Assembly: GCA_021323865.1 (NCBI GenBank)
Contig: JAJPKF010000019.1
Location: forward strand, 130,747-194,746
DNA from: Pseudomonadota bacterium
Lineage (GTDB): Bacteria; Chloroflexota; UBA5177; JAJPKF01
Direction of reading: 5' to 3'
Length of the DNA: 64,000 nt
Under the pieces are notes generated by a model. It worked only from the letters and a program-made list of their open reading frames with translations. It had not been told where the DNA came from and searched no databases. This document shows positions 26,337 through 63,601 of the stretch, piece by piece. A program made the translations under genes and the position numbers. Position 1 is the stretch's first letter. Each line of letters begins with the position of its first letter.

Positions 26337-26675
26337 TCCGGCAACTCCTTAAGAAAAAACTTCAGAGACAGGCGTCCCTGAAGTGCAAGGAGCTACAAAC
26401 CTGGCGTCTGACACCTAAGTCTAGCAGGAATAGAGGGTGGGAGCAGAAAGCAATCAGGGGCCGCGAGTGAGTGTTTCACCTGGCACTTGCCCGCGAAGCG
26501 CCGGCTTCAGTCTCAGCGGGCCATCCGATCGGCTCGGTTGGGCTCCGTCATCGCGTCCGTCCGGTCCGAGATGAAACGTAATCTGCCCGCCCCCGACGCA
26601 GCGGTTGGTCAGGGACCCTGACATGTGATAAGTAAAGAAGATGCGGCCTTTCGGGGCCGCTTATCTTTATTCCAG

Positions 26676-27608
26676 ATGGAAGGTGGACGGCAAATCGTGT
26701 TCTCACTCTTTGGCAGCAAGGCTCACCTCAGCCTGACCGTTGACGGCTCCCAGTTTCTCCCCGGCGACGTGGTCAAGGCTCACCTCGAGGTGAAGATCGA
26801 CAAAGACATCGACGTTCGTGGCGCTACTATCAGTCTTGTTCGGGCCAACCGGTACCAGTATCGCTATACCAGCACCAACTCGGAGGGTGACGATACCACT
26901 GCCTCCCGATGGAAGACCGACGAGGTGCCGGCGGCTTCGCTTCCGATTGGTGAGCCGGGCAAATGGCCCAAGGGTGAGATCTCCCGAGACTTCGAGCTCG
27001 CCGTGCCGGCCGATGCCCTGGGCTCGAGCGCCGGACAGATTACCGGCATCTCTTGGTTGGTCCGAGCGCGGCTTGACATCTCTGGCCGCGATGCCTCAAC
27101 GGAGAGCCCGATTCGGGTGCTCGCTGTCAAACACCGATTTGCTTCCTGGGGCGATGGGGAAGTCTCTACCTCGGGCGTAGACGACTGCGCACTGGAGTTC
27201 ATCAATCTCTCCACCTCACTGCTCCGTCCAGGGGAGAGCATTCGAGGCGGGCTGCGTCTCACGCCTACGAAGAGCTTCAAGGCCGGGGAGATTCATGCCG
27301 AGCTTGCCCGGCTCGAGCGAGTGCCGCAGGGCGAAGGAAACCGCCGGCTCACGCCCTTGGTTACGGGCTCCCTGGGACGTGACGTTCAGCTGACAGCCGG
27401 CGAGCCGCAAGAGCTGGCGTTCGAGCTCACGCTGCCCGCCGATGCTTCTCCTACCTTTGCCGCTCCCCAGTCGAACCTGCACTGGCTGCTGCGTGGGGTG
27501 GTTCATCGGGGCATGCTACACCATGATCCGACTATCTCCAAGGAAGTCGTGGTATTCAACGCCGGTGCGGCAGAAGATGTCGGTGACAAGGAGAACCCGG
27601 CAGCCTGA
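26676..27608 (+). CDS. Spo0M-like / arrestin-fold protein
   Basis: ATG 26676; 'SLFGSKAHLSLTVDGSQFLPGDVVKAHLEVK' resembles Spo0M N-terminus; two internal repeats (…FELAVPADA… / …FELTLPADASP…). Confidence 0.5.
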   Translation: MEGGRQIVFSLFGSKAHLSLTVDGSQFLPGDVVKAHLEVKIDKDIDVRGATISLVRANRYQYRYTSTNSEGDDTTASRWKTDEVPAASLPIGEPGKWPKGEISRDFELAVPADALGSSAGQITGISWLVRARLDISGRDASTESPIRVLAVKHRFASWGDGEVSTSGVDDCALEFINLSTSLLRPGESIRGGLRLTPTKSFKAGEIHAELARLERVPQGEGNRRLTPLVTGSLGRDVQLTAGEPQELAFELTLPADASPTFAAPQSNLHWLLRGVVHRGMLHHDPTISKEVVVFNAGAAEDVGDKENPAA

Positions 27609-37719: not shown

Positions 37720-38967
37720 TTGCTTGGCCTGCTGCGGGTGCGAAACGCCCGCTTCTACCTCCTTGGTGAGTTCGTGTCCATCTTCGGCGACGTGGCGCTG
37801 TGGTTGGCCCTGGGAATCTGGGTGAAGTCACTCACGGGAAGCAACAGCGCGGCCGGCCTGGTCTTTTTCGCCTTCGCGCTCCCGACGCTGGCCTCGCCAG
37901 TCAGTGGAGTCTTTGTCGACCGGTTCAGACGGCGGCCGCTTCTGATTGGAACCGACCTATTCCTCGGCTGCCTGGTGTTGCTGCTTACTCTCGTGCATGG
38001 GCGCTCCAGCATCTGGCTCATCTACGTGGTCATGGTCTTTTATGGCCTGGCGTTCAACGTGCTCAGCTCCGCCGGCGCGGCGTTTCTGCCCAGCATCCTG
38101 GACAGCGAGCTCCTTCCCCACGGCAATGCCGCGCTGCAGGTTGGTCGACAGGGACTACGCCTGCTCGGACCACTTATGGGCGCCGGTCTGTTTGCCTGGC
38201 GTGGTGGCGCCTTCGTGGCTGTGTTCGACGCCGCAACGTTCGGCGTAGCGGCGGTCGCGCTGGCGCTCATACGAGTCGAGGAGATCAAGCCCTCGCCCTC
38301 GGAGAGCCACTGGCTGTCGCAGGCGCTGTCCGGGATACGGCATGTCCTCAAGACCACGGTGATCCGCCAGGTTGTGATCGCCATCGTCATCGCGGTGATC
38401 GTGGTGGGCTTCCTGGAGTCGCTCATCTTCGCGATCGTGGCGCAAGGCCTGCACCGGCCTCCGGCATTCCTGGGGCTGGTCATATCGGTCCAGGGGATTG
38501 GCGGCATACTCGGCGGTTTGACCGCCGCAAAGCTCATGGAACGCACGGGCGAGGGCATCCTGGCCGCAATCGGCCTGGGGCTATTTGCCTGCGGTGCGCC
38601 GTTGCTTGCCCTCTCGAGCCTGCCTGCCGTCATAACGGGCATCGTGATCTTCGGGCTCGGCCTCCCGTGGCTGATTGTCGGGGCGACCACGCTCGTGCAG
38701 CGGGTGACTCCGGCGAACCTTCACGGCCGCTCCTTTGCCGCCCTGGATCTGTTGATCGGAGGCCCACAGACCTTTTCCATTGCGTTGGGAGCTGCGCTTG
38801 TCGCCGTAGTGGACTACCGAGCTCTCCTCCTGATCATGGCGGCGGTCGTCGCAGTCGCCTGCCTCTATCTGGCAACGCGGCCGGAGCAGTGGGCGCGAGC
38901 CCGTCGCCACCCCAACGCGCCAACCGGCACGACTGCCGAAGTTGCTCCACACGCCGTGGAGCCCTGA
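37720..38967 (+). CDS. MFS transporter
   Basis: 415 aa; 12 predicted TM helices, MFS motif-like 'VFVDRFRRRPLLIG'; TTG start after GGAGGAG. Confidence 0.8.
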   Translation: MLGLLRVRNARFYLLGEFVSIFGDVALWLALGIWVKSLTGSNSAAGLVFFAFALPTLASPVSGVFVDRFRRRPLLIGTDLFLGCLVLLLTLVHGRSSIWLIYVVMVFYGLAFNVLSSAGAAFLPSILDSELLPHGNAALQVGRQGLRLLGPLMGAGLFAWRGGAFVAVFDAATFGVAAVALALIRVEEIKPSPSESHWLSQALSGIRHVLKTTVIRQVVIAIVIAVIVVGFLESLIFAIVAQGLHRPPAFLGLVISVQGIGGILGGLTAAKLMERTGEGILAAIGLGLFACGAPLLALSSLPAVITGIVIFGLGLPWLIVGATTLVQRVTPANLHGRSFAALDLLIGGPQTFSIALGAALVAVVDYRALLLIMAAVVAVACLYLATRPEQWARARRHPNAPTGTTAEVAPHAVEP

Positions 38968-38984
38968 CCGAAGCCGCGTCGCCG

Positions 38985-40211
38985 CTACAGCTGCGCTTCG
39001 AGATCCGACGTCTTCAGCTGCGGCACCGGCTCACGAGACGCGCGCCACCGGCGGCGTGGTAGGGCCACCGCAGTCAGGGCAGCTGCCGCCACGCAAAGTG
39101 ACGCCCCGCACCAGAACGGAAGACCCTGTTGGACGCCGAACAGAGCGCCCAGCACACCGGCCCCGACGGCGCTTCCCCCGAACTGGAAGAACCCGCCCAT
39201 GCCCATGGCGCGGCCGCGAACGTCGGCCGAGGTCGTCTCGCTGATCACTGCAAACAGCACGGGTTGGACGACCACGAAGCCGGTTGCTTCGATCATTCCG
39301 ACAAGGAGGATCACCGGATAGGAACGGATCTCGGGATAGAGGGCGGCGCACGACGCTACCACCAAGAACGAACCGCTCAAGAGAATGCGCCGGTTCCAGC
39401 GGTCGCCCAGCTTCCCGACGGTGCCCGCCAGGAGCAGCACCGGAATCGCGAAGGCGCTGATCGAGAGCCCAATGAGAAACGGACCAATTCCTCGTGCGCT
39501 GAGATATTGCGGCCATACCACGTCGTACATCGCGAACATGGCCCCCGCGGCAAGCAGCGCAAGACTGGGAACGAGAACCGCTGAGGTTCGCCACCAGCCG
39601 GGTGTGGCCGGAATCGCTTCCTCTTGTCGATGGCCTCGGGTTTCCGGGAGACGGAACAGCGCGGTGACACCCAAGAGCGTGCCGAGGCCGGAGCACAGAA
39701 AGATCGCCGAATCCGTCCACAGCGCCACGGCGCCCCCAATGGCCGGGCCGATGAGGAGGCCTACCATTTCGACGGCCTGAAGCTGTGCGTACCGTTGTGC
39801 TCGTCGCTCACCGGTGGTCAGATCGGCCAGAGCCGCACGAAGTGCCGGAATATAGGCTCCGCCGGTGAGCCCTTGCCCCAATCGAAGGAGCGCCAACAGC
39901 CACAGCGGTCCCAGGTTGAGGAAGAGGCCGAACGAGAGGACTGAGAACACCAACCGGGCGCCGATGAGCACCGGTTTGCGACCCACCCGGTCGACCAGAT
40001 GGCCGGCCGGCACCTGGATGATGGTGTTTGCCACCATGGGACCGGCGATGAAGGCCGCGATCGCCAGCGACCCGCCGCCATGGCTCCGAACGTAGAGTGG
40101 GGCGACCGGGAACACGGCCGCGATGCCCGTGAACATCAGCAGCTGACCGAGAAGTAGCCGCGATGCGGGGTCCAATTGCCGGCTTCGCAGCGTGGTTAGG
40201 AAGTCGAGCAC
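38985..40211 (-). CDS. MFS transporter
   Basis: 408 aa; 12 TM helices, 'GHLVDRVGRKPVLIGA' MFS motif A. Confidence 0.8.
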   Translation of the reverse strand: MLDFLTTLRSRQLDPASRLLLGQLLMFTGIAAVFPVAPLYVRSHGGGSLAIAAFIAGPMVANTIIQVPAGHLVDRVGRKPVLIGARLVFSVLSFGLFLNLGPLWLLALLRLGQGLTGGAYIPALRAALADLTTGERRAQRYAQLQAVEMVGLLIGPAIGGAVALWTDSAIFLCSGLGTLLGVTALFRLPETRGHRQEEAIPATPGWWRTSAVLVPSLALLAAGAMFAMYDVVWPQYLSARGIGPFLIGLSISAFAIPVLLLAGTVGKLGDRWNRRILLSGSFLVVASCAALYPEIRSYPVILLVGMIEATGFVVVQPVLFAVISETTSADVRGRAMGMGGFFQFGGSAVGAGVLGALFGVQQGLPFWCGASLCVAAAALTAVALPRRRWRASREPVPQLKTSDLEAQL

Positions 40212-43956: not shown

Positions 43957-46422
43957 TTAGGCGGCGCCAGGCGTCGGAGGCGTGGGCGCCTGCCAGCCCG
44001 CATCGATGCCCGGCATGAGGATGGCGTCGAAGTGAGCGTACTTGATGAGATCGGAGGCGGCGGGTCGCTCGAGCAGCGCCTGAGCCAGAACCTCTTCCAT
44101 GGTGTCGACCGGAATGACGGTCAGCTCGTTCCGAACATCCTCAGGAACCTCTTCCAGGTCCTTCAGATTCTTCTTGGGCATCAGGACGGTTCGGATGCCG
44201 GCGCGGTGGGCGGCCAGAGTCTTGTCCTTCAGGCCGCCGATCGGCAGGACGTTCCCGCGGAGCGTAACCTCTCCCGTCATGGCAACGTCGCGGCGAACCG
44301 GACGCGCCGTGAACGCGCTTACGAGGGCCGTGGCGAGAGCGATTCCCGCCGAAGGCCCTTCCTTGGGGATGGCGCCGGCAGGAACGTGGACATGAATGGC
44401 ATGGTTGTCGAAGGCGGTTGGATTGATGCCCAGGTCACGCGCACGTGAGTGGACGTAGCTCATGGCCGCCCGGGCTGACTCCTGCATGACGTCGCCCAGC
44501 TGGCCACTGAGGATGAAGTTCGGTTTGCCATCCATGAGGGTCACCTCGACGGACATGATGTCGCCGCCGTATTCGCTGACGCTCAGGCCAGTGGCCACGC
44601 CAATCTCGTCGTTTTCCTCGGCCATGCCCCAGTCGAAGCGGGGCGCCTTCAGGAAGTCCGCGACGCCGTCGGCGTCGACAACAATCTCCTCTGCCCCATG
44701 CTCCACGAAGCGACGGGCCAGCTTCCGACAGATGGTTGCGATCTCGCGCTCCAGCTGCCGAACCCCGGCTTCCCGCGTGTATTCACGGATGATGAGCCGC
44801 ATCGCCGCCTCGGTGACGGTCAGCTGCTCCTCAGTGATGCCGTGGAAGCGTCGCTGCTTGGGAACCAGGAAGTCGAGGCCGATACGCAGCTTCTCTTCCT
44901 CGGTGTACCCGGGTAGCTCGATCACCTCCATGCGGTCTCTCAGAGCCGGCGGGATGGTGTGCAGGACGTTGGCGGTCGTGATGAAGAGCACCTTCGTTAG
45001 GTCGAAGGGCACTTCGAGATAATGGTCGGCGAAGTCCGAGTTCTGTTCTGGATCGAGAACCTCCAGCAGAGCCGCGGAAGGGTCACCCCGAAAGTCGGCG
45101 CCAACCTTGTCGATCTCGTCGAGCATGATGACGGGATTATTGGAGCCGGCCTGGCGGATGGCCTGAACGATGCGTCCCGGCAGCGAGCCGATGTAGGTGC
45201 GGCGGTGGCCGCGGATCTCCGCCTCGTCGTGCACGCCGCCAAGCGACATGCGGGCAAACTTGCGGTTCAGGGCAGTGGCCACAGACTTTCCGAGCGAGGT
45301 CTTGCCGACGCCGGGTGGTCCCACCAGACAGATGATCGGGCTGCGCAGCTCTGTCGACAACTGGCGGACCGCCAGGTGCTCGAGCACACGCTCCTTGACC
45401 TTCTCCAGTCCATAGTGGTCGCTGTCGAGCTGTTGCGCCGCAGCTGTGATGTCAAGCTGGTCATCGGTGCTGATTGACCAGGGCATGCCGACCAGCCAGT
45501 CGAGATACGTGCGAATCATGCCGACCTCGGGCGAAGCCGCGGGCATCTTTTCGAGACGCCCAACCTCCTTCTCGGCCTTCTCACGTACCTTCTCGGGCAT
45601 ATTGGCTTCTTTGATCTTCTCGCGCCACTCCTCGGCCTCGGCGGCCTCGGCGTCGAGCTCGCCCAGCTCTCGCTGAATCTCCTTCATCTGCTCCCGAAGC
45701 AGATACTCACGCTGGGTCTTGTCGATGTTCTTCTGGACCTCAGAGCTAATGCGCGTCTTGAGGTCGAGCATCTCGACCTGCTTGCTCAGAAACTGGCTGG
45801 CAAGTCGAAGGCGCTCAGGAATGTCCAGGGTTAGGAAGAGGTGCTTCCGCTCCTCGGACTCCAGCTCGGGAACACAGGCCACCAGATCGGCCAGATAACC
45901 GGGATCGGTTATCTCGCGGACGGAGCCGGGTGACAAGGGATCCGCGGGCACGTTCCCCCGGAGCTGAACGTACTTAGTGATCATTTCCTTGAGGGAGTCC
46001 ATGAGAGCGCTGAGCTCTAGCGAACTCTCGGCCTCCTCTCGGATGGGGGCAAACTCGACCTCCAAGTAGGGGTCGGTTTGTGTGTAGTTCAGCAGGCGGA
46101 CACGGTACTCTCCCTGGGCAAGAAGATGGACCCCGCCGTCGGGCATGCGAACCATGGGACCGATGGTGGCGACAACGCCCATCGGCATGAGGTCGGCCGG
46201 AGAGACGTCGTGTTTCTCGGAGTCGGTTTGAGTGACGAGCACGATGCGCTGCGGCTTGGACTTGACTGCCGCTTCAACGGCCTGAAGTGATGTCTTCCTG
46301 CTCACCTGGAGAGGCGCCATCATGCGGGGGAAGACGATCAGATCGAAGAGTGGTACGACCGGCAGACGCTCGATGTTTGGCTCGGACTTTTCTGCCGAAG
46401 CCTGCGCGTCCCGTGTGGACAT
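43957..46422 (-). CDS. lon: ATP-dependent Lon protease
   Basis: 821 aa; LON N-domain, AAA+ 'GPPGVGKTS', C-terminal protease domain with '[15 protein letters not shown]' Ser site. Confidence 0.95.
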
Positions 46423-46766
46423 GTATGCCTCGTATGGGAATTTCGTGGAAAGTGAAGGCCGGTCCTTGGGTTCCCTCAGTATAGGAATGGGTTCCCCAAG
46501 GAGGAGGCCACCACACCTCGTGGCTTAGTATAGCACTGGAAAGGCTCTTTAGCCCACAACTATAAAGGTTTTGTTACGATCGGTTACCGGAAGCGATGTC
46601 GCCCGGAGCCGTTTTAACTCCATCCAGTGTCAACAGACACGCTCTCGGCACCATAGGATTTCCAGGTACTGGCCGCGACGGAACAGAGTTTCGCGCCACG
46701 ATCGCGGCGTGTCGTGGCCGGCTTTGTGCCCGATCGAGGTCTCTGTCTCGCCAGGGGGGCAACCGG

Positions 46767-47807
46767 CTAGCGAATCAGGATGTGGCCGGGGTCCCCTTCG
46801 AGCGCGTGACCGATGACAACGCCGAGATCGCCGCTCTTCTCCAGGTCCGCTTTGAGCCGCTGCGCCGCCTCGGCGGGCGACGCAAGCAGCAGCCCGCCCG
46901 AGGTTTGAGGGTCCGTGAGCAGCGTCAGCAGCTCCCCAGGTAGAGACGGGTCGAAGACGACCCGCTCCAGCACGAACTCCTCGTTCGTGCGGCCCCCCAT
47001 CGGAATAAAACCGCGGCGTGCATAGTCGAGCGCACCCGGCAACAGGGGAACGGCCCTGCCTTGGAGCTCGAAGCGAATCCCGCTGGCCCGACCCATCTCA
47101 CTGAGATGGCCGAGCAATCCGTAACCGGTGATGTCGGTGGCGGCATGTACTTCAGCTCGAAGCATCGCGCTCGAGGCTCGATTGTTCAGCCGCGTCATCC
47201 ACCCAACGGCCGCCTCGACATGGGTGGCGAGTGCAGCTTCGGCCTTCAAGGCCGTTGCAATGACGCCGGTCCCGAGAGGCTTCGTGAGGATCAATAGGTC
47301 GCCCGCCTGGGCCGTCGACGGAAGCACCAGCCGGTCTGGATGCGCCGTCCCGGTCACTGCCAGCCCGTACAGTGGCTCCTGGCCTTCGACCGTGTGGCCG
47401 CCGATGATAGACACGCCGGCCTCCTGAGCCTTCTCCGAGCCGCCGCGCAGGATCTCGCCGAGGATCTCCATGGGCACAGAGGTGGCCGGAAAAACCACGA
47501 TGTTCAGGGCCGTTAGGGGTTGAGTCCCCATGGCGTAGAGATCGCTCAGCGAGTTGGCGACGGCGATCTGGCCGTATGTGAACGGATCATCCACCACGGG
47601 CGTAAAGAAATCGGTGCTCTGAACAAGAGCAAGATCGTCCCGAAGCCGGTACACGCCGGCATCGTCCGCGAGGTCGGGTCCTGCGAGCACACGCGGATCA
47701 GTAAGGGTGGGTAAGTCGCGCAGCACGTGCGCGAGGCGGGAGATGCTAACCTTGCCGGCTCAACCCGCGCACGCGACGAGACTCGTCAGCCTGATCTCGT
47801 CTGCCAT
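46767..47807 (-). CDS. selD: selenide, water dikinase (selenophosphate synthetase) containing in-frame UGA selenocysteine codon at 47760..47762
   Basis: ORF track begins at GTG 47726, but the upstream in-frame sequence reads MADEIRLTSLVACAG-TGA-AGKVSISRLAHV…, matching the SelD active-site loop (E. coli 'GAGCGCK'); ATG 47807 preceded by GGAGGT RBS; rest of protein collinear with SelD (AIR synthase-like domains). Confidence 0.75.
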
Positions 47808-47999
47808 CTGATCACCTCCCTTCGTAACGTTCTCGCGAGAGATTTGCGGGCAGTCCGCCGTCACCGTTCACGCTTCTCATTCTGGACCGGACAATCGAGC
47901 GGTAGGCTCGGAGACCGTCCTATAGCTGAGATGTCTGCCATTGCACCTGGCCCCGTTTCAACGAGAATCCAACAACACGTAGCGACCGAAAGGGAAGAT

Positions 48000-48536
48000 A
48001 TGGCCAGAATCGAACCGGTCGATCCCAATGGAGCGTCTCCCACCCAGCGAGCGAGTCTCGCGGCAATCGTCGGGCGGGTCACCAATATGAAGCGCACGTT
48101 GGCGCACTCGCGGGTTGCGCTCGATGCGCTCATGCAGTGGTATCCGCTGCAGGAAGCCGTAATGCCATTCTTGGGTGCCAGGGCAACGTCCCTCTTTTGC
48201 CGCGCAATCTCGGCGCAGAACTCCTGTCTGATCTGCTCGTCCTATTTCCGCCGTGAGCTCGTGGAGAGTGGAGAGGATCCGGACAACCTCCATCTGTCAG
48301 AGCTGGAGCGGGTGGTTGTCGACTTCGGGTACCAGCTGGCTCGCGACCCGCATGCTGTGGACGACGACCTCTACACCGGGCTCGCCACCCATTTCTCGGA
48401 CGAGCAGATCGTCACCCTAACGGCCTTCGGAGCGCTGATGATTGCGACCAACGTGTTCAACGACGCGCTTCGAGTGGATCTCGACGCGGATCTGGAACCG
48501 TTCCGGGCTGAGCCCTCGGAGGTCCGGATTGGGTGA
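48000..48536 (+). CDS. carboxymuconolactone decarboxylase (CMD/AhpD-like) family protein
   Basis: ATG 48000 after GAAAGGGAAG; AhpD-like helical fold pattern with 'SCLICSSYF' CxxC; divergent from selD. Confidence 0.6.
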   Translation: MARIEPVDPNGASPTQRASLAAIVGRVTNMKRTLAHSRVALDALMQWYPLQEAVMPFLGARATSLFCRAISAQNSCLICSSYFRRELVESGEDPDNLHLSELERVVVDFGYQLARDPHAVDDDLYTGLATHFSDEQIVTLTAFGALMIATNVFNDALRVDLDADLEPFRAEPSEVRIG

Positions 48537-49332
48537 TCTCGAGGGTAGGGTCGCTTTCATCACCGGTGCAGCTCACGGCCAGGGCCGTGCGACCGCCATC
48601 GCCATGGCTCGTGCCGGCGCTCACATCGCTGCCCTTGACGTGGCGAAACCGTTGCCCTATCCCGGCTATGGTTTGGGAACCACCCAGGATCTTGAATCAT
48701 TACGGAAAGAGATTGAACGCTTGGGTCGAAGTTGTTTCGTCCACGCCGGAGACGTGCGTGACGACGAGGCGGTGTCTGCTGCAGTTCGAGAGACCCAGGC
48801 CCGTCATGAGCGGATCGACATTCTTTTCAACAATGCCGGCATCTGTGGCTATGGGCTCGCTCACGAGCTGTCTGAAGAGGCATGGGACGCAACGCTCGGC
48901 ATCAATCTCAAGGGCGCGTGGCTGGTGGCCCGACGGATCATCCCCATCATGATGGGGCAGCGTTCTGGAGTGATTCTGAACAACTCGTCAGTAGCAGGAC
49001 TTCGTGGCATGGCTAGGCTTGGCCACTACGCTGCATCGAAGTGGGGCCTTGTCGGACTCACCAAGTCATGGGCCATCGAGCTGGCGCCATACAACATCCG
49101 TGTCAATTCGCTGCATCCGACCGGCGTCGATACTCCGCTGAACGAGGGGCTGGCCCAGCTCGAGGGGACGACACCGGAGGAGATCGGGGAGCGATCGGCG
49201 GGCAACTTGCTCTCGGTCCCCTGGATCGAGCCTGAGGACGTCGCGGAAATGGCCGTCTTTCTCGCTTCCGACCGTGCCCGCTACATCACGGGGAGCCAGA
49301 TCCCAGTGGACGCGGGGCTGTTGACGCGATAA
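48529..49332 (+). CDS. SDR family oxidoreductase, LimC/carveol-dehydrogenase-like subfamily (tightly bound NAD type)
   Basis: TTG 48529 after GGAGG; 'VAFITGAAHGQGRATAIAMARAGAHI' signature, 'YAASKWG' catalytic YxxxK. Confidence 0.75.
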   Translation: MGDLEGRVAFITGAAHGQGRATAIAMARAGAHIAALDVAKPLPYPGYGLGTTQDLESLRKEIERLGRSCFVHAGDVRDDEAVSAAVRETQARHERIDILFNNAGICGYGLAHELSEEAWDATLGINLKGAWLVARRIIPIMMGQRSGVILNNSSVAGLRGMARLGHYAASKWGLVGLTKSWAIELAPYNIRVNSLHPTGVDTPLNEGLAQLEGTTPEEIGERSAGNLLSVPWIEPEDVAEMAVFLASDRARYITGSQIPVDAGLLTR

Positions 49333-49430
49333 CCTGGTCTCGAACAACTCGCGCTGATCGTGTGAGCGGGTGAGACGTGAGTTGGAGAGTCGATGGCGCT
49401 CGAGCTCTGCGAGATAGGAGTCGCAGTACG

Positions 49431-50486
49431 TCAGCTGTCACTCATAGACTGGTGGTCGATACGGCCTCGATGAAAGTCGACCACGGCCTCGACGAGTGGT
49501 CCGGCTCCAAATCGGAAGGTGTCGGTTGCCGGCAGGGCCGTTTCGGCGCCAATCGATGCCACCGTGGCGCGTGCGGCGGTCTCTGAAAGCCCGAGGGTGT
49601 TCACGGCCACGCCGATGACGGCGGCCGGATGGATCCAGCCGGCCGCGGCCTCGTGCATCTCGATCAGCTCGAGCGCCGAGGGGATGTCAACCGTGTAGTC
49701 CTCGATGTAATCTCGCGCCGGCATGACCGTCAAGATCATGGCATCAGGCTGGGAGCCGTGGATCAGGGCCAGTGTCACACCCGAATAGGCGGGATGAAGC
49801 AGTGAGCCTTGGCCCTCCACCAGAACGATGTCATGCTTCTCGGACGCTCTCAGAACCTCCTGCTCAATCGCCCCCGCCATGAAGTCGCCGACGACCCGAT
49901 CCAGCGGAACGCCGTTACCTGCGATCATCATGCCCGTTTGTCCCGTGGCCAGGAACACGGCATCGGTACCCCGATCTTTTGCCTCACGCTCGATGTCGAG
50001 TGCCACCGACATTTTGCCCACGGCACAATCACTTCCCACGAAGGTGATCACCGTGCTTGCGGATCGGTGGCTCTGGCCGGTCGCAACCTCAGTCAAGGTG
50101 GGAGGCTTTCGCACATCCACCAGGTCGGTTCCAGCATCCGCGGCGGCTGTTGCCAGCTCCGGATCGTCGGCCAGGAACTGATGGAGCCCTGAGACTACCG
50201 TTAGGCCGGCCCTGATCGCCTGCAGAACGACCCGCCTCCACTCAGGAGGGAGCATTCCGCCCCGGGTGGCCACACCGATCAGTAGCGTGTCCGGCCGGTG
50301 GTGCATAGCGGCGTCGAGCGTCGAGACGATCGGCGTGCTACCGCCCAGACCCACCACCTCACCCGTGGTCTTCCCCGCGTTCGATCCGTCAATCAGGGCA
50401 ACGACTTCATCCGTCCGATAGCGCAAGATGCCCATGGCAGTCTTGCCGAAGTGGAAGTCGAGGTGGCCGTCGGCCAGCACCGCCAC
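49431..50486 (-). CDS. DUF1611 domain-containing protein
   Basis: 351 aa; N-terminal Rossmann-like plus C-terminal P-loop-like 'VGSDCAVGKMS' arrangement typical of DUF1611. Confidence 0.55.
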   Translation of the reverse strand: MAVLADGHLDFHFGKTAMGILRYRTDEVVALIDGSNAGKTTGEVVGLGGSTPIVSTLDAAMHHRPDTLLIGVATRGGMLPPEWRRVVLQAIRAGLTVVSGLHQFLADDPELATAAADAGTDLVDVRKPPTLTEVATGQSHRSASTVITFVGSDCAVGKMSVALDIEREAKDRGTDAVFLATGQTGMMIAGNGVPLDRVVGDFMAGAIEQEVLRASEKHDIVLVEGQGSLLHPAYSGVTLALIHGSQPDAMILTVMPARDYIEDYTVDIPSALELIEMHEAAAGWIHPAAVIGVAVNTLGLSETAARATVASIGAETALPATDTFRFGAGPLVEAVVDFHRGRIDHQSMSDS

Positions 50487-50529
50487 CCGCCGGCCCTCCA
50501 GTGATTTGATGGCTGGCTGTCTCCTTCTG

Positions 50530-51192
50530 CTAGGCTTCTTCTCGGGCCTCTCCCATGCCCGTGGTGGCAGGGAGCGATGTGTTGGACTGTTGTGCCGGGG
50601 ACCTGCCGGCGCTTGGCTGCAGCGTCTGACGCCAAACGTGGTAGATCCGCTGAAGGGCCGTGGCAGCAGTCAGAGCGACCAGGAGAATGAGAACCGGAAC
50701 AAGGATACCCAGCAGCAAGCCGAGGCCGAGAATAATGATCCGCTCGGGTCGCGGCAGAAGGCCCACCTTACACTCCAGACCCAATCCCTCAGCCCGAGCA
50801 CGGGTGTAACTGATCATGAACGATCCGACCAGGAACGCCAGCAAGAGAACAACGGCAGTCGTATTGTGGTGAACGGTGTAGGTGTAGGTCAGTCCGACGA
50901 CAATGGCCGCCTCGCTATAGCGGTCCAGAACCGAATCAAAGAAGGCGCCAAAAGTTGATTGCGACTGAGTGATCCTGGCGAGGGCGCCATCAAGCATGTC
51001 CGCGGCCCCCGCGAGCAGTAGCAGAACTCCGCCCAAGCGAAGGTTGCCGGTGGCGAGAACATAGGCGACGCCAACATTGAGGCCGAAGCCGAGCACGCTG
51101 ACCATGTTTGGCGTGAGTCCGACGCGGGCGAGCGGTCGAACGACGAGCTCGGCCATGCGCCGGCCCCAAGCCTGGACGCCTGAGCTGAACAT
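50530..51192 (-). CDS. CDP-alcohol phosphatidyltransferase (phosphatidylinositol-phosphate synthase-like)
   Basis: 220 aa; motif D-x2-DG-x2-AR-x8-G-x3-D-x3-D ('ADMLDGALARITQSQSTFGAFFDSVLD'); 3-nt spacing after pimA-like gene. Confidence 0.75.
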   Translation of the reverse strand: MFSSGVQAWGRRMAELVVRPLARVGLTPNMVSVLGFGLNVGVAYVLATGNLRLGGVLLLLAGAADMLDGALARITQSQSTFGAFFDSVLDRYSEAAIVVGLTYTYTVHHNTTAVVLLLAFLVGSFMISYTRARAEGLGLECKVGLLPRPERIIILGLGLLLGILVPVLILLVALTAATALQRIYHVWRQTLQPSAGRSPAQQSNTSLPATTGMGEAREEA

Positions 51193-51195
51193 GGG

Positions 51196-52383
51196 TTAGC
51201 CGGAGGGCGCGATCGTGATCGCGGTCTTGCCTGGAGAGAGGAGGTTGGACCAGGCAGGGCTTTCGTTCTCCGAGAGTCGAGCTCGCTCGCCGTAGAAGTG
51301 CAGGATGCGTTGGGCGATCTGCGGCCAGGCGAAATGGTGAGCCCAGGCCTGGCCTGCCGTGCCCATCTCGGATCTCAGTGAGGGATCCTGCAGCAGCTGA
51401 CAGATCGCGTCCGCCAAGGCTTGCTCGTTTCTTGGTGGAACCAGCAGCCCTTGCTTGCCGTGCCCCACCACGTCTCGATAGCCGTCAATGTCTGAAGCGA
51501 CGATGGCTACACCCGAAGCCATGGCTTCCAGGAGAACGATGCCGAAGCTTTCTCCTCCGGTGGCCGGCGAACAGAACACGTCGGCGCTCCTATATAAGGA
51601 GGGCAACACGGAGTCGGGCTGCCAGCCGAGGAAGATGATGTCGCGCAGGCCGTGGGTCTCGACATAGCCACGATAGCGGTCGCGCCCCCAGTCTCCGGCG
51701 CCCGCCACGACGATGCGGGCTTCAGGGAAGGCGTTCTTTATGGCCGGATAGGCCCGGATGAGGTATCCCAATCCCTTACGCTTTTCGGGCCGGCCAACGA
51801 AGAGGATGTTCGGTCGCCCATCGCTCAGTTCGGCAAGCGGTGAGGCAGACGCGAAGCGTTCGTAGTCGACGCCGTTGGGGATGATGGTGTACCGGGCCTG
51901 AAAATACTGTTGCACGAACTTCTTGGAGGCTCGCGAGACAGCAATACGCCCATCGAGATTCATGAATACGCGCTTCAACACGGGGCGTCCATAGAAATAG
52001 CCGTAGTAGGAGCCGCGGTGGGCATGGAACGTCCCGATGTTCAGGGCGTCTGAATAGCGGAGGATGGTTGGCGGGAGCGCGGGCATGAGGGGCTCGTGGG
52101 CGTGGACCACATCGAACTGCTCGGCTCGGAGGATGTCGCGCACCCGGCGAGCCAGCCGGAACGACAAAGTGATGCGGGCGATGGAGCCGTTGGCCCGCAC
52201 CCGGGTGACCCTCCCGACCCGATAGACGTTGTCCATCTGCTTCTCGATTTGACGGTTGGATGACGGCGCAATGATGCGGACGTCATGACCCAGATCGAGG
52301 AACTCCTGCTGGAGGTGCAGGACGTGCTGGGTGACTCCACCGGGATAGGGAAAGTCGTAGGGAGAGACAAGGGCGATTTTCAG
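51196..52383 (-). CDS. pimA: GT4 glycosyltransferase, phosphatidylinositol alpha-mannosyltransferase (PimA)-like; non-canonical start
   Basis: ORF track starts at ATG 52236, but in-frame upstream codons encode 'KIALVSPYDFPYPGGVTQHVLHLQQEFLDLGHDVRIIAPSS…', the conserved GT4/PimA N-terminus; bounded by TAG at 52384..52386; CTG at 52383 has GGAGG 7 nt upstream. Confidence 0.65.
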   Translation of the reverse strand: MKIALVSPYDFPYPGGVTQHVLHLQQEFLDLGHDVRIIAPSSNRQIEKQMDNVYRVGRVTRVRANGSIARITLSFRLARRVRDILRAEQFDVVHAHEPLMPALPPTILRYSDALNIGTFHAHRGSYYGYFYGRPVLKRVFMNLDGRIAVSRASKKFVQQYFQARYTIIPNGVDYERFASASPLAELSDGRPNILFVGRPEKRKGLGYLIRAYPAIKNAFPEARIVVAGAGDWGRDRYRGYVETHGLRDIIFLGWQPDSVLPSLYRSADVFCSPATGGESFGIVLLEAMASGVAIVASDIDGYRDVVGHGKQGLLVPPRNEQALADAICQLLQDPSLRSEMGTAGQAWAHHFAWPQIAQRILHFYGERARLSENESPAWSNLLSPGKTAITIAPSG

Positions 52384-53185: not shown

Positions 53186-55198
53186 CTAGAGAGGGTGCCT
53201 CTTGTCGGTAAAGAGGCTAGGCAAGATGTACGGGTCGCCCTCATAGACGTGATGGGGCGGTGAGTAGGATGCCGGATGTATTGGGCCGCCCACCGGCACT
53301 GACACCCGGTTCAGCCTCTGCGTCACGGGTACTGTCAGCTTTACTCCTCCCTTCCCTCCGATGGTCACGCCGCCCGTGCCGAGTACCTCTAGGTGTATCG
53401 TACCAAGGTACGAGCCCGGTTGTCTCTGGATGGTCAGCTGGTAGCGGTTGCCGGTGAAGGCGGACGGAGGGACCAGGTAGCGGAACACCACCACATCGGT
53501 GTGGTTTTCCTTGACCCCCATGCCGCCGGCAAGCTGTCGCGCTCCGTACGCCGTTTCGTCGGCCCAGGCATCGATGCCGCTTGATCCGAGCAAACGGGCG
53601 CCGGGGGGCACGTAGATGCGCAGGAAATCCAGGTAGTCGTGCTTGGTGCCGCCCAACCCGAAGTGGGGACCGAACCCCTCCAGGGTGTTGGGCGAGCGAT
53701 TCACATGGTAGCGCAGCGTCAGGGTGGCCTGCGCCCATAGATCGGGGCGTACGACCACGTGATACGTAACTGCTTCTCGCACGTAGGGATTGAGCTTGTT
53801 GTAGGAACGATTGTCGTCGACGATGTAGAGGAAATCGTGTTGCGGGCGGGCAATCGTCCCCTCCGCACCGACGTCGACGATGGTCCGCTCGATGGCCGGA
53901 TTGCGATCGTACATGAGCAGATGCTCCTGAGCCACCGCCCTATGGAGGCCTGTTGCCACGCGCAGGAAGCCGGGGATCCCCATTCCCTGGAGGCGCTTGA
54001 TCATGACGCCCATGAAGACGCCGAGGAAACTCGTCTTGCTGGCATCTGCACGCGCCTGACTGGTCGAGAAGGGATGCCTGGTTCCGTAGATGTAAAAGTT
54101 GGCCACAGCCTGGGCATTCTTGGCGGCGACGACTCGGCGATAGCCGGGGACGTAAACCGGCCCCGTCGCTTGCAGGATATCGGCGGCGCCGTCGGTCACA
54201 TTCACGACCATCGGAGCCCACCGGCCCGTATCCTCGCCATACAGCCATCGTTCAAACCGGGCGGACAAAGGAAAGCTGGGAGACCAGTTGGAATCCCGGA
54301 ACAGCCAGCTCACTTCATCCGTATATGTGGCCATCGGTGCGGGTATGGGCATGGTGATCTCATGGCTGAGGGCGCTGCCGCTCGGCTGAGTCGAGACGAT
54401 ACCCTTACGAACCGTCATGTAGTTGACTGCTCCGATGAAGCCGCCCGTGGATCGCAGCTCACGACGGTCTTCCCATGCGAGCAGAATATGGCTGGGCCGC
54501 GACCAGCCGAGTAGCGTCGGCGCCGCCGTGAGCCATTCGGCCGAATTGCGCAATCCCGGCAGCTCGCCCCGAAAGCGGTGGAGGCTTCGGTTGAGAACGG
54601 CGCTTCCCAGATTGACCGGTGCTCCCCGGAGCGCGGCGAGGGCGCTATCGAACTCTCGAGTTGCGGTCATGAAGCGCAGGTGACCCCTGGCGAGTACGGG
54701 CAGAATACGAGGCAAAAGCGGCTGGCCGGGGCGGTGGGCCGCCAGGATCGACCACATGGGAGAGGAGGCGTCCAGGAGGCTCAGGGCCGCCGAGGTGCTG
54801 TCCCGGCCCGCGGTGGCCAGCGGAGCGGCAGCCGCCAGCTCCGAGCCGACGCCCGGAACCCAGCCCAGATGGCCCAGAAGTGGCTCCCAGAGGACGAGAT
54901 CGTTCTCGGCCAATCCGAACTCGCCATTCGCGGCCGAGAGGTGGCTATTGAGCTGCTGCCGCATGGTCGGATCTTGGAGAGCCGTTAGGTTTCCCGCCAC
55001 CGACCGGGCGATGTTGAGATCGGCGACCGCATTCGACAGGTGTCTGCGGGCCTGCACCAGCTGCACCAGAGCCACGAGCGCTATGACGATAAGGGCTGCG
55101 GTCAAAAGGCGCTTCACTAGCTGCCGCTTTGCCCTGATGTGCACGATCGGGGTTGCCTTGGGCCGTGTCTGGGCCCTCACAGGGATTGCTGCGCTCAT
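53186..55198 (-). CDS. DUF4012 domain-containing membrane-anchored protein
   Basis: ATG 55198 (alternative GTG 55252); N-terminal TM 'LLTAALIVIALVALV' then a >600-aa extracytoplasmic domain; DUF4012 assigned from overall architecture (N-terminal TM plus large ~600-aa extracytoplasmic domain), motifs recalled from memory, low certainty. Confidence 0.5.
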   Translation of the reverse strand: MSAAIPVRAQTRPKATPIVHIRAKRQLVKRLLTAALIVIALVALVQLVQARRHLSNAVADLNIARSVAGNLTALQDPTMRQQLNSHLSAANGEFGLAENDLVLWEPLLGHLGWVPGVGSELAAAAPLATAGRDSTSAALSLLDASSPMWSILAAHRPGQPLLPRILPVLARGHLRFMTATREFDSALAALRGAPVNLGSAVLNRSLHRFRGELPGLRNSAEWLTAAPTLLGWSRPSHILLAWEDRRELRSTGGFIGAVNYMTVRKGIVSTQPSGSALSHEITMPIPAPMATYTDEVSWLFRDSNWSPSFPLSARFERWLYGEDTGRWAPMVVNVTDGAADILQATGPVYVPGYRRVVAAKNAQAVANFYIYGTRHPFSTSQARADASKTSFLGVFMGVMIKRLQGMGIPGFLRVATGLHRAVAQEHLLMYDRNPAIERTIVDVGAEGTIARPQHDFLYIVDDNRSYNKLNPYVREAVTYHVVVRPDLWAQATLTLRYHVNRSPNTLEGFGPHFGLGGTKHDYLDFLRIYVPPGARLLGSSGIDAWADETAYGARQLAGGMGVKENHTDVVVFRYLVPPSAFTGNRYQLTIQRQPGSYLGTIHLEVLGTGGVTIGGKGGVKLTVPVTQRLNRVSVPVGGPIHPASYSPPHHVYEGDPYILPSLFTDKRHPL

Positions 55199-55267
55199 CT
55201 CAGTGCATGCTGCGTCACGTTGCGGCGATGACCACGCCGACCTAGGAGCCACACGGCCTCCAGCCGC

Positions 55268-56905
55268 TCAGTGGCGCGAGTGGGACCGGCCCTGATTGTG
55301 GGGCTGGGCGGGAAGGACGATACGGCTACCACGATGTACCAGCGTGAGGTCGACTGAATTAGAGAAGGGGCCTCGGAAGAACAGCAGGCTCTTGACGGTG
55401 ACGGCGACCTCCCAGCGATAGTGACCGGCCGGCAGGTTGGCCCGGACGCATGAACCCTTTGCGGGCTTGAATCGGTGCAGGTGGGTCTGCCGGGTTCCGG
55501 TGAACGTGCCGATGCGGGCATCGTAAACGGCGTGCGACATCGAACGATGCCAGCACAGGAAGACGAGGCGGCTCGCCCCCTTCTGAGGCCCGAGGGCGAT
55601 ATGGAGCCCCGTCGGAGATTGCAGATGAGGACCGACGTAGAGGCCTGTTCGGCGACTGTAGGGCGCCCACAACTTGAGCGGCGCCAAGGAGCGCACCCGC
55701 CAAAAGTAAAACCGGCCGCCCTTCACGTTCTGCAGGACGTAGTGGTCGGCTCGCTGCACCCGCGATACCAGTGGATGGCGCCACACGGCCCGATTGGGGT
55801 CCTTCCGACGGGCCGCGACGATCTGCAGCTGATACCGAGAGGCCAACCCGCTGCCGTTCCAAGAGATGGGCACGGTCGGGCCCCACGTCATGTACCGGAT
55901 ACCGGGACGCGGAATCTGGGCGCCGGCGGGCACTTGGACCGCAGGAATAAGCAAGAGGGGAAGGACGATAAACAACATGATGTTGATGCTGCCGTGGGCG
56001 AGGGTGACGCCGAACAGCGATTTGGTTCGCAACACCACGGCGCTGAAGTACACGGCAACGACGAGAACGAACAGCAGGTCGAGGGGATTGTGCCATCCGA
56101 TGTGCAGCGCGGCAAAGATAAGGGCCGTAAAGGCCACGCCCAATCCGGTGCCCAGCCACCGCGTGCTGACCGTTTGGATCAAGCCTCGAAAGATGAATTC
56201 CTCAAAGAGGCCGGTGAAGATCATGAGAATCAGGGCTCCGCCGATGATCCAGAGCCAGGACGGGCTGACCATGGGCTGAACACCGAGGATGGACCACTCG
56301 CCCACCCCCAGAATGACTCCACTGCAGGCGACCGCAATCTCAAGCGGCAGATTCTGTGGGTTGGGCGGAACGAGGTTCAGATCCTTCCAGGACAGCCCGA
56401 TATTCTTGGCGATCAGTCCCCCGCCGGCGAATACCGGAACCGCCGTGAGGAGATACCAAAAGGCCTGCGGAACCTGGCCGAGCGGCATGGAGAGGCTGAT
56501 GACGCGAATCATGGGGGCGACCGCGCAGGTCAAGAGAAAGGCCCGTCGGTTTCCCGAAGCTTCCGACCCGGCCAGCAGCAGAATGGTCAACAGGACGATG
56601 TCGATGCCGACTCCCACGACCGCGCCGATGGGATGATTCTGTACGGTGACGTAGGTGATGACCGTCTCGGACAGAATGACGGCAGCCAAGACCAATCCGG
56701 CGATGGTGAGATCTGTCCGGCGGTCGGACGGCTTGCGTTGGGCATCGCTCCGTTTCACGGGGCGAGCCCCGGCCTTGCGACGAGCGGTCGTCACGGATGT
56801 CGGCGAAGACTGAACCGGGATCGGCTGGCTCCTGGCCGACATACCGAAAACTCGGCGCAACCCATCCATGCCGCCCGACTGGCGCGACGAAACCTGCTTG
56901 TTCAT
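55268..56905 (-). CDS. CPBP family intramembrane glutamic endopeptidase (CAAX protease/Abi) with C-terminal extracytoplasmic domain
   Basis: 545 aa; conserved 'EEFIFRG', 'FAALH', 'HGSIN' CPBP motifs in multi-TM region; ~200-aa C-terminal soluble extension. Confidence 0.65.
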   Translation of the reverse strand: MNKQVSSRQSGGMDGLRRVFGMSARSQPIPVQSSPTSVTTARRKAGARPVKRSDAQRKPSDRRTDLTIAGLVLAAVILSETVITYVTVQNHPIGAVVGVGIDIVLLTILLLAGSEASGNRRAFLLTCAVAPMIRVISLSMPLGQVPQAFWYLLTAVPVFAGGGLIAKNIGLSWKDLNLVPPNPQNLPLEIAVACSGVILGVGEWSILGVQPMVSPSWLWIIGGALILMIFTGLFEEFIFRGLIQTVSTRWLGTGLGVAFTALIFAALHIGWHNPLDLLFVLVVAVYFSAVVLRTKSLFGVTLAHGSINIMLFIVLPLLLIPAVQVPAGAQIPRPGIRYMTWGPTVPISWNGSGLASRYQLQIVAARRKDPNRAVWRHPLVSRVQRADHYVLQNVKGGRFYFWRVRSLAPLKLWAPYSRRTGLYVGPHLQSPTGLHIALGPQKGASRLVFLCWHRSMSHAVYDARIGTFTGTRQTHLHRFKPAKGSCVRANLPAGHYRWEVAVTVKSLLFFRGPFSNSVDLTLVHRGSRIVLPAQPHNQGRSHSRH

Positions 56906-61048: not shown

Positions 61049-62911
61049 GTGAGTGAATCGACCGCGACGCGCATGCAGGAGCCTGCGGCCACACCAGTCG
61101 ACACGCCAACTGTAGCGTCCGACCCTCGCCGCAGGGCTCGTCGCCTATCCCTCCGTGCAACCACCGTCCAAATGCTTGCCCAGTGGGTCATGGTCTTGGG
61201 GTTTGTGGTCTTTGCGTATCTCGTCGTCCGCCGACCATTCCAGAGTGATCCCTCCGTCCAGAATCTTGCGGTTCTGATCGATCTCCTCATCGCCACACTG
61301 AGCACCGGCATCGCGGCGGCATCGGTTCGGTCGGGACGGAGCTGGGTGATATTTTCGGCTCATCTGGTCGTTGCCGGGTTCTTGGTGCGCCTGATCCCCA
61401 GCCTGATCCTGTCTCTTCCGCCGTATCAAGATCCGTATCCGTACTTTTCGACCTTCCTCATCGCATGGAGGAGCAAGTCGTTCTCGCCGACCTCGTTCTC
61501 CTGGTTCAAGGCGACTCCGGCCGAGCTCCACTGGCCACTGCTGCAGTCCCTGACGGTCGAGATTCGGGCGTGGACGGGCATGTCGCTGACCGACCTGATC
61601 ATCCTTGTGCCACCCGCACTGGGAGCGCTCACCTGTGTTGCCGCTTCGCTGGTGGCCTACAGTGTGTATCGATCCTGGCGAACCGCGGCCATTGCCGGGC
61701 TCCTGGTGAGCTTCACCGACGTGGTGATCTTCTATCAAAGCGAGTACCACCCGCAGGGGGTGGCTCTCCTGACGTTTTCGCTGCTCATCTACTTGATCCT
61801 GGAGTCCCGAGCTGCTCTGCGCCTCGGTGCGAGCATCCTCACCCTTCTCGTAGCCGGCGCGTTCCTCCTGACGCACCACGCCTCGGCGCTGGTCGTCCCG
61901 CTCGTGTTGCTACCGTTGCTGGCGATCCCCTTCCTGGCCAGACTTGTGACGACCTATGGGTCAGAGGGTTGGCTGGCAAGATTCAAGCTTCGCGAGATGC
62001 TAAAGGACCTGGACATGGGGCCCTTCGAGCGGCTGGTCCCCATCGTCCTGCTGCTTGTCGTGTGTGGGCTGAGCATGCAGATCTTCTTGTCGAATTCGAT
62101 TCTGTTGCTGGTTGTTCACCAGTTCGATCGAGGCGGTCTGCCCATTGCCAATGCCTCTACCGGCACGAGTCTCTGGCTCCTGCTGCTCCGCTTCGGCAAA
62201 TACCTGCTGCTGCCGATCAGCTTCGTGGGTCTCTTCCTGAGTGCCAGGCGCATGGACGCGAAGCGACTGATCCTGCTGGTGCTGGCGGTTGGACTGGCGG
62301 CCGCAAGCGCTCCCGCCCTGGCGACGGGCAGCACCAGCATCGACCGCATCATTAGTTTCTGGGCGCTGTTCGCCTCGGTCCTTGCCGCCTTCGGGTTGAC
62401 TCGTTGGCTGCCCGGCGCGCTCGGGATTCGACGTTGGGCCGGAGCCTTAGCCGTAGGCGCCATTGCCATCTACAGCTCACTCGGGATCCTCGACGCCCAA
62501 ATCCCGGCCTTCTACCTGAGCCACACGCCTCGCGTCCGGGGACTGTTCTACGGCAACGCACTCCCCAATTCCCGAAGCATCGCGCTGGCCGGCCATTGGG
62601 TTCGATATCACATCCCGCGAACGGCCTACGTGGACACTGATTTCGCTACGCGTGTCGGCGTCTTCTTCTTCGGTCGGATCCCCTTCAATCAGGCCATTTA
62701 CACGCCCCTTCGAGTGCCGTGGAGGGACTATTGCAAGGCGAGTTACGTGGTCGTCGACCCGGCGATGGACCGCGGATTCGACATGCCGGGGCCGGTCCCC
62801 ATCAATTACTCGGGCTATGCCCGGATCTATGACAACGGCTCCGTTGTGGTGTACCAGCGGCAGCGGGGACAGACCTGCACCTTTAATCCGTTGGCGAGGC
62901 CGAAGCACTGA
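61049..62911 (+). CDS. polytopic membrane protein, possible GT-C-type glycosyltransferase or polymerase
   Basis: 620 aa; >=10 TM helices followed by C-terminal soluble domain; context within glycan cluster. Confidence 0.5.
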   Translation: MSESTATRMQEPAATPVDTPTVASDPRRRARRLSLRATTVQMLAQWVMVLGFVVFAYLVVRRPFQSDPSVQNLAVLIDLLIATLSTGIAAASVRSGRSWVIFSAHLVVAGFLVRLIPSLILSLPPYQDPYPYFSTFLIAWRSKSFSPTSFSWFKATPAELHWPLLQSLTVEIRAWTGMSLTDLIILVPPALGALTCVAASLVAYSVYRSWRTAAIAGLLVSFTDVVIFYQSEYHPQGVALLTFSLLIYLILESRAALRLGASILTLLVAGAFLLTHHASALVVPLVLLPLLAIPFLARLVTTYGSEGWLARFKLREMLKDLDMGPFERLVPIVLLLVVCGLSMQIFLSNSILLLVVHQFDRGGLPIANASTGTSLWLLLLRFGKYLLLPISFVGLFLSARRMDAKRLILLVLAVGLAAASAPALATGSTSIDRIISFWALFASVLAAFGLTRWLPGALGIRRWAGALAVGAIAIYSSLGILDAQIPAFYLSHTPRVRGLFYGNALPNSRSIALAGHWVRYHIPRTAYVDTDFATRVGVFFFGRIPFNQAIYTPLRVPWRDYCKASYVVVDPAMDRGFDMPGPVPINYSGYARIYDNGSVVVYQRQRGQTCTFNPLARPKH

Positions 62912-62929
62912 TGCACGCGAGCGCGCGAC

Positions 62930-63601
62930 ATGCCTAGTTTCCTCGCCCTTACCGTATCGCTCTTCGTCTTCTGGACGTTTGGGGCGTTGATCGTGTCCGT
63001 GTGCTGTCCGCGATTCTTTACCCCATGGCCGATCTCTTGGGCGGTATCGCTGCTCAGCGGCATCGCCATGATGGGCGTGCTCGGGGTGGGGCTTGGTCTT
63101 GTAACGTCCGGTTCCCCCTGGTTCTCGCGGTCTGCCACGGTAGAGCTGCCGGTCGCGGTCGTGGTCGCCATTCTGCTGATTGTTCGCTGGGTTCGCGATC
63201 AAAGACGCGCCGGCGGCTTGCCCGCTCCCCGGCTGACACGATTGTCGGGACCCTTTGTGCTCTCCATCCTCAGTCTCGTTCTCTTCGTGGCTATGGTTTC
63301 GGTGGTATGGGCCAAGCGACCGCAGCCGGCAGGAGCCATTCAGCTGAGCGGCGCAAGACAAGGCTCTGCGGCGGTGCTCACAGTCTTGTCGACCTACGCA
63401 AAACCGGTCACTATTCGGCTCAACGCCGTCTGGACGGCCAACGCTGGAACCCATTCACGGCCCCTCGGTCCGATACGGATCGGCACCAAGCCCGTGCACT
63501 TTACGATCCCCGTTCCATACCAGCTGAAGGTGAGTTTGTACCGTGTACAATCCGGATCCAGCCAGGGTCGAGCCGTCCAGTGGCTTGTCCTCCCGCCATA
63601 G
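62930..63601 (+). CDS. hypothetical membrane protein
   Basis: 223 aa; 4 predicted TM helices, then about 100-aa soluble tail; ATG 19 nt after upstream stop. Confidence 0.5.
   Translation: MPSFLALTVSLFVFWTFGALIVSVCCPRFFTPWPISWAVSLLSGIAMMGVLGVGLGLVTSGSPWFSRSATVELPVAVVVAILLIVRWVRDQRRAGGLPAPRLTRLSGPFVLSILSLVLFVAMVSVVWAKRPQPAGAIQLSGARQGSAAVLTVLSTYAKPVTIRLNAVWTANAGTHSRPLGPIRIGTKPVHFTIPVPYQLKVSLYRVQSGSSQGRAVQWLVLPP

Follow-up and report, generated by a model that had tools for sequence, protein, structure and literature searches.

A truncated selD call with an in-frame TGA: evidence for a selenocysteine codon and a downstream bSECIS hairpin

The selD gene on the minus strand of the window (that is, of the whole 64-kb stretch of DNA that we analysed) very probably encodes selenocysteine (Sec) at an in-frame UGA and is predicted to carry a functional bSECIS hairpin downstream of this codon. 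Comparison of sequences demonstrates the reading frame, homology both before and after the UGA, the pairing of Sec with Cys at this position, and a hairpin whose conservation and covariation are confined to UGA-type genes. The gene is an ordinary Sec-type selD, and the outcome is an annotation fix that holds nothing new for selenocysteine biology: the database entry P0001 (319 aa, without the catalytic loop) should become a 346-aa selenoprotein with U16.

Reading frame, start site and protein identity

The features of the gene are the following.

46767..47807, minus strand: full-length selD CDS, 346 codons plus a TAG stop, with U (Sec) as codon 16, according to the translation, TIGR00476 and the alignment with E. 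coli SelD
47814..47819, minus strand: Shine-Dalgarno sequence GGAGGT, 6 nt 5' of the ATG; in the orthologue L162 the ATG likewise follows GGGAGGTGAT
47805..47807, minus strand: true start ATG; the start matches that of L162 (MTDELRLT) and the N-terminal length is as in E. coli SelD
47760..47762, minus strand: in-frame TGA, Sec codon, residue 16, aligned to the catalytic Cys17 of E. coli SelD
47751..47753, minus strand: AAG, Lys19, which by alignment is the catalytic Lys20 of E. coli SelD
47724..47726, minus strand: GTG miscalled as start, in reality the GUN codon for Val28, which lies in the apical loop of the candidate SECIS

Read directly, the frame on the minus strand runs through MADEIRLTSLVACAG, then the TGA (47762..47760), then AGKVSISRLAHVLRDLP and so on, unbroken into the called ORF. 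The mechanical ORF call was 46767..47726, with 319 aa and a start at GTG 47726, and the first 27 codons are missing from it. According to the original prediction this call had been truncated by the in-frame TGA, and the frame is indeed continuous across a single TGA into 46767..47726; the ATG at 47807, the GGAGGT, the TGA at 47762..47760 and the hairpin which that prediction had placed on this strand are all present in the minus-strand reading. The ribosome-binding site proposed 6 nt before the ATG also stands, both the GGAGGT and the ATG being kept in L162, the closest orthologue. The only alternative in-frame start upstream is GTG 47864, which has no ribosome-binding site.

The 319-aa ORF call is thus an artefact caused by treating UGA as a stop, and it is not limited to our own ORF list. 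The database entry P0001, on record with the Pfam domains PF00586 and PF02769 (AIRS and AIRS_C), is the same truncated product (319 aa, 100% identity). The nearest relatives in the databases are mostly proteins of 319-326 aa with their first residue just past the Sec position, and most of these show the same kind of truncation.

Regarding the identity of the protein, the gene encodes, by prediction of enzyme activity from its sequence, a selenophosphate synthetase. The 346-aa product, with a placeholder at codon 16, scored 362.9 bits against TIGR00476 (cutoff 125) and 320.5 against NF002098 (cutoff 299). In the TIGR00476 match residues 6-314 corresponded to profile positions 1-310, with residue 6 on position 1. 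E. coli SelD (3u0o) was aligned end to end (residues 3-338, E = 6.9e-72), and Aquifex SelD was aligned with E = 1.3e-57. The codons upstream of the TGA had been claimed to be homologous to the SelD N-terminus; the profile match, which begins at position 1, and the match to E. coli SelD, which begins at residue 3, both agree with this.

The segment A-G-U16-A-G-K19 was aligned with G-A-G-C17-G-C-K20 of 3u0o, so that position 16 lies on Cys17 and Lys19 on Lys20, both of them essential residues of E. coli SelD. Since codon 16 and Lys19 fall on this pair, the truncated call is a SelD without its catalytic loop: only readthrough of the TGA gives the protein its N-terminal Gly-rich loop. The relatives listed retain the motif G-U/C-x-x-K. 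Bacterial SelD proteins that contain Sec include those of Haemophilus influenzae and Aquifex aeolicus, and the structures of the latter (PDB 2yye/2zod) come from a protein crystallised as a Sec-to-Cys variant.

The in-frame TGA among relatives

Relatives were taken as 80 loci from species genomes and 80 from metagenomes, and the codon aligned with codon 16 was located in them by tblastn. The query carried Cys at codon 16 and therefore the retrieval was not biased towards TGA. The metagenome matches listed had 44-53% identity, not 60-65%, and the close orthologues were taken individually. Among the 160 loci listed the aligned codon was TGA in 140, TGC in 14 and TGT in 6, and the flanks were conserved on both sides of it as RLT...AG[U/C]A[GAS]K. 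Furthermore, Cys stands at the Sec position in 8 of the full-length relatives aligned, whose N-terminus is nearly identical to that of the window protein. The claim that the TGA aligns with the catalytic Cys/Sec of SelD was therefore borne out by Cys17 of E. coli as well as by the 20 Cys-type against 140 TGA-type relatives listed.

The closest Sec orthologue, L162, is syntenic and has 65% identity. In the 15 codons before the TGA it differs from the window gene by synonymous codons for Arg (AGG/CGT), Thr (ACG/ACA) and Ala (GCG/GCT). Because of these synonymous differences, and because the GGGAGGTGAT ribosome-binding site is kept, the upstream segment must be under selection as coding sequence. 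To judge from these alignments, it is not by chance that the catalytic codon is an in-frame TGA preceded by a homologous peptide.

The 319-aa product given by ORF callers and public databases, together with the Sec machinery not being found in the window, could be read as a sign that the TGA is a true nonsense codon, so that selD would be either a pseudogene or the source of a 319-aa product begun at GTG 47726 without the catalytic loop. We consider this highly improbable. The 15 upstream codons are conserved as protein, with synonymous differences from L162 and a conserved ribosome-binding site, and the same TGA is present in 140 of the 160 relatives listed. The GTG at 47726, for its part, is not preceded by a ribosome-binding site and falls within the loop of a stable hairpin, and it is established knowledge that a SelD lacking the Cys/Sec-x-x-Lys loop would be inactive. 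Global reassignment of UGA was also considered and rejected, as TGA closes 24 of the 49 long ORFs in the window and is its most used stop.

A sequencing or assembly error is extremely improbable as the origin of the TGA, even if a single-base change suffices to turn TGC or TGT into it. An independent Logan assembly (L001, from SRR5579884) is 100% identical over 46767..47900, TGA included, and this base-for-base agreement rules out an artefact of assembly. NCBI, ENA and Logan sources all contain the identical truncated protein, a 319-aa member of its cluster comes from JGI, and L162 and L163, which come from two other samples, have TGA too.

The candidate SECIS hairpin and its covariation

The hairpin is placed as follows.

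47716..47734, minus strand: candidate bSECIS hairpin, with 5' arm UCGCGCA (47734..47728), loop CGUGC (47727..47723) and 3' arm UGCGCGA (47722..47716)

It has a 7-bp stem and a 5-nt loop, CGUGC, with a dG of -10.1 kcal/mol. The stem begins 25 nt past the UGA and the loop 32 nt past it; counting the U of the UGA as 0, positions 28-34 pair with 46-40. In the loop, G occupies position 2 and is followed by U. The loop-closing bases, C and C, are unpaired, whereas most relatives have a G-C pair there. An eighth pair, C35-G39, was rejected, position 39 being a C, and the stem stays at 7 bp.

The consensus bSECIS model is that of Zhang and Gladyshev (2005), in the form in which PMC13188914 summarises it. 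According to PMC13188914 the loop has 3-9 nt, the stem 4-16 bp, the spacing between UGA and loop 16-37 nt and the MFE is at most -7.5 kcal/mol, with a G in the first two loop positions that is usually followed by G or U. The window hairpin lies within all the consensus criteria quoted there. Taken alone, it is nonetheless weak evidence of a SECIS. The folding energy of the hairpin region was no better than that of shuffles (z = -0.12). Regarding the base rate, 33 of the 1841 TGA triplets in the window (1.8%) are followed by a hairpin within the same criteria at -10.1 kcal/mol or below, and 6.6% of them by one at -7.5 kcal/mol or below, in a window of 62% GC. Since single-sequence folding did no better than shuffles and such hairpins occur at a base rate of 1.8-6.6%, we relied on comparative evidence. 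Rfam gave no gathering-level match in the 64-kb window, and a permissive Rfam scan of 47600..47900 (E <= 10) gave one irrelevant snoRNA match only. This miss was not counted against the SECIS reading, because bSECIS elements are short and heterogeneous.

Among the sequences listed, a hairpin in the same register, with at least 6 of the 7 pairs, was present in 35 of the 141 Sec-type genes and in none of the 20 Cys-type genes. The loop of these same-register hairpins always holds a Val GUN codon at 36-38. For covariation we used 43 Sec-type sequences, which were picked by the peptide [QEHY]-V-[LM] at +11 to +13 and not by their pairing. In this set 87.2% of the cells were paired against 73.6% in column shuffles (0/500), and in 43 cells both sides had changed, where 12.2 were expected (0/500). 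Covariation scored 0.400, against 0.155 in the shuffles and 0.05-0.13 in registers slid by 1-3 nt, and compensatory changes affected 6 of the 8 pairs. These counts come from related coding sequences and part of the signal could be due to shared ancestry, against which the slid-register control argues. The clearest covariation was GCG...CGC, GCC...GGC and GCU...AGC, where a synonymous change in the third position of Ala goes together with a change in the first position of the Arg, Gly or Ser codon that lies four codons downstream; selection at the protein level does not explain such a pattern in the third base of Ala.

The close orthologues agree with this pattern. The stem in L162 is identical to that of the window, and the proximal sequence differs. 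The syntenic Cys orthologues L164 (TGC) and L166 (TGT) keep only 3-4 of the 7 pairs, and in them the Arg has been replaced (R-to-E and R-to-D). At the level of sequence comparison, then, the hairpin covaries strongly and is conserved only in UGA-type genes. The original prediction had named the 7-bp hairpin as a SECIS candidate, and it can be kept as such: it fits the published bSECIS model, and its register is that of a covarying hairpin which occurs in Sec-type genes only.

A Sec-type selD whose SECIS is some other fold, for instance a weak proximal stem at +6 to +27 as in Binataceae and Nitrospirota, seems unlikely to us. In about half of the Sec-type relatives listed the best hairpin does have its centre at +19 to +24 and not at +37, and the MFE fold of the window sequence includes a small proximal stem. 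The window lacks, however, the proximal hairpin GGUCC-GGN-GGACC, and its distal hairpin stands exactly in the register of the covarying class and is identical in the closest orthologue, where the proximal sequence is different. The distal hairpin is therefore the one that we propose as the SECIS of this gene.

Across the relatives (L002-L161), the Sec-type selD genes show at least two SECIS placements, for example +13..+28 in L008 and +28..+46 in L074. The proximal class is of the form GGUCC-GGN-GGACC or GGUCCAA...UUGGACC with its loop at about +21 to +24, and was seen in Binataceae and Nitrospirota. The distal class, whose loop contains a Val GUN codon at +36 to +38, was seen in Chloroflexota-like loci, in Uabimicrobium, in some Acidobacteriota and in the window. 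Moreover, a Cys-type (TGC) selD of Binataceae type, L012, keeps GGGUCC-GGC-GGACCU at +13..+28 as do its Sec-type neighbours, and from its sequence this hairpin looks like a remnant SECIS left after a recent change from Sec to Cys.

It is doubtful that the distal SECIS (+28 to +46, with a Val GUN loop) is a distinct and phylogenetically broad bSECIS class that co-evolves with a particular type of SelB, or that Sec decoding has been kept solely for SelD. If the distal class were distinct, its members (Chloroflexota-like, Planctomycetota-like Uabimicrobium and Acidobacteriota) would stand apart from the Binataceae and Nitrospirota with the proximal GGUCC-GGN-GGACC.

Sec machinery, known systems and neighbouring genes

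According to the mechanism that we propose, translation would begin at ATG 47807 behind the GGAGGT ribosome-binding site. The hairpin located 25-43 nt past the UGA, with its 7-bp stem and a CGUGC loop containing the conserved G-U, would act as a bacterial SECIS and would be bound by the SelB.GTP.Sec-tRNASec complex. Sec would then be inserted at the UGA in place of termination, and the product would be a SelD of 346 residues with Sec as its catalytic residue 16. For SelB binding and for the actual insertion of Sec at this UGA we infer from the established bacterial mechanism, and the same mechanism suggests that selA, selB and selC lie elsewhere in the genome to which the window belongs.

No selA or selB was found in the 64-kb window by Pfam scans of its 49 long ORFs and of the ORF 48000-48536 (+). 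ARAGORN, repeated with positive controls, found no tRNA-Sec and no tRNA at all in the window. A tRNA-Sec (anticodon UCA) adjoins selD in 5 related loci, and these make up 5 of the 7 tRNAs that ARAGORN found in 1.35 Mb of selD-centred DNA. The positions within each locus are given below.

L032, 1506-1604: tRNA-Sec beside selD
L110, 4555-4646: tRNA-Sec beside selD
L113, 997-1096: tRNA-Sec beside selD
L120, 2320-2414 (complement): tRNA-Sec beside selD
L128, 431-527: tRNA-Sec beside selD

Two of these loci, L113 and L128, have the hairpin class of the window. In L120 the selD is Cys-type (TGC), yet the tRNA-Sec still adjoins it.

These data also bear on the reading in which a suppressor or near-cognate tRNA decodes the UGA as Cys, Trp or Gly, much as the SPS1-UGA genes of Hymenoptera are read through independently of a SECIS. 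There is a precedent for it, since a UGA at exactly this position of SPS is read in such a way in insects (PMC4561486), and the scans of the 64-kb window found no Sec machinery. For the window gene we regard it as very improbable: its hairpin fits the bSECIS model of the SelB type, including the G-U of the loop and the spacing, and covaries in UGA-type genes only; relatives that share its hairpin class show linkage between tRNA-Sec and selD; and TGA is the stop codon that the window uses most.

Insertion of Sec, the preferred reading, places the gene in a well-known family. SelD has been described as the second most widespread prokaryotic selenoprotein family (PMC13188914) and as one of two selenoprotein families that are the most abundant (PMC1794560). 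SelD proteins with Sec, as well as the truncation of their annotation, have been well described (PMC1794560, PMC4561486, PMC13188914). Mariotti et al. 2015 (PMC4561486) reported that selenoprotein genes are usually misannotated and recovered bSECIS elements in Sec-type selD genes. SECIS variability in SelD, and the loss of the SECIS on conversion from Sec to Cys, are the subject of Inoue et al. 2024 (Metallomics Res.), as cited in PMC13582414.

The window gene shares with the Sec-containing bacterial SelD its membership of TIGR00476, the N-terminal G-U-x-x-K loop, the UGA at the same codon and a downstream bSECIS inside the CDS. Only the lineage (uncultured, with Chloroflexota-like nearest named relatives) and the SECIS placement set it apart from other Sec-type SelD: its hairpin is distal, with the Val-codon loop at +36 to +38, whereas many other lineages have a proximal one. 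E. coli SelD (3u0o), in contrast, uses Cys (TGC or TGT) and has no need of a SECIS, where the window gene has a UGA and a hairpin. As in the bSECIS elements of E. coli fdhF and fdnG, we find a simple stem-loop in the coding region past the UGA with G-U at the start of the loop. At 32 nt, however, the spacing comes close to the upper limit of the consensus range, and the hairpin lacks a bulged U and has no sequence similarity to the fdhF element. A degraded SECIS in SelD genes converted from Sec to Cys was reported by Zhang et al. 2006 (PMC1794560), and the hairpin loss in L164 and L166 matches that pattern; the window gene, unlike the converted ones, is the Sec form with its hairpin intact.

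The source organism is likely a Sec decoder. Because the corrected selD marks it as such, other UGA-split genes in its genome deserve to be inspected again. A screen of the intergenic gaps of the window gave no credible candidate for a second selenoprotein gene split by TGA. Extension of the long ORFs across TGAs, which is noisy at 62% GC, gave two same-frame gene pairs that are split by a TGA plus a few codons. One of them is at 53186..56905 (-), with an Rce1-like gene and a DUF4012 gene, and the other at 61049..63601 (+), with ORFs of 620 aa and 223 aa without a Pfam match. Both pairs are probably due to chance at this GC content.

Regarding the neighbourhood of selD, the order GT4 glycosyltransferase, CDP-alcohol phosphatidyltransferase, DUF1611, selD and Lon is conserved (window 43957..52236; L162-L167). 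In relatives, two lipid A-type acyltransferases and an inositol-1-phosphate synthase precede this order. The GT4-to-Lon cluster is common to Sec-type and Cys-type orthologues, and it looks like a lipid cluster of the phosphatidylinositol-mannoside type. In orthologous loci DUF1611 is directly upstream of selD; in the window two plus-strand genes stand between them, in 47808..49332.

48000-48536, plus strand: ORF of 178 aa without a Pfam match
48442-49332, plus strand: SDR

Since both of these plus-strand genes are inserted there, selD is transcribed divergently from them.

Two further observations concern other parts of the window. The 327-aa ORF at 26625..27608 (+) matches the arrestin domains PF02752 (C-terminal, E = 3.3e-11) and PF00339 (N-terminal, E = 3e-05), and an arrestin domain is unusual in a bacterial ORF. 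In 37800..40162 there are two ORFs that overlap on opposite strands, 37800-39062 (+) and 39031-39720 (-), both without a Pfam match, and across TGAs the frame of the latter extends by a further 162 codons upstream and 149 downstream.
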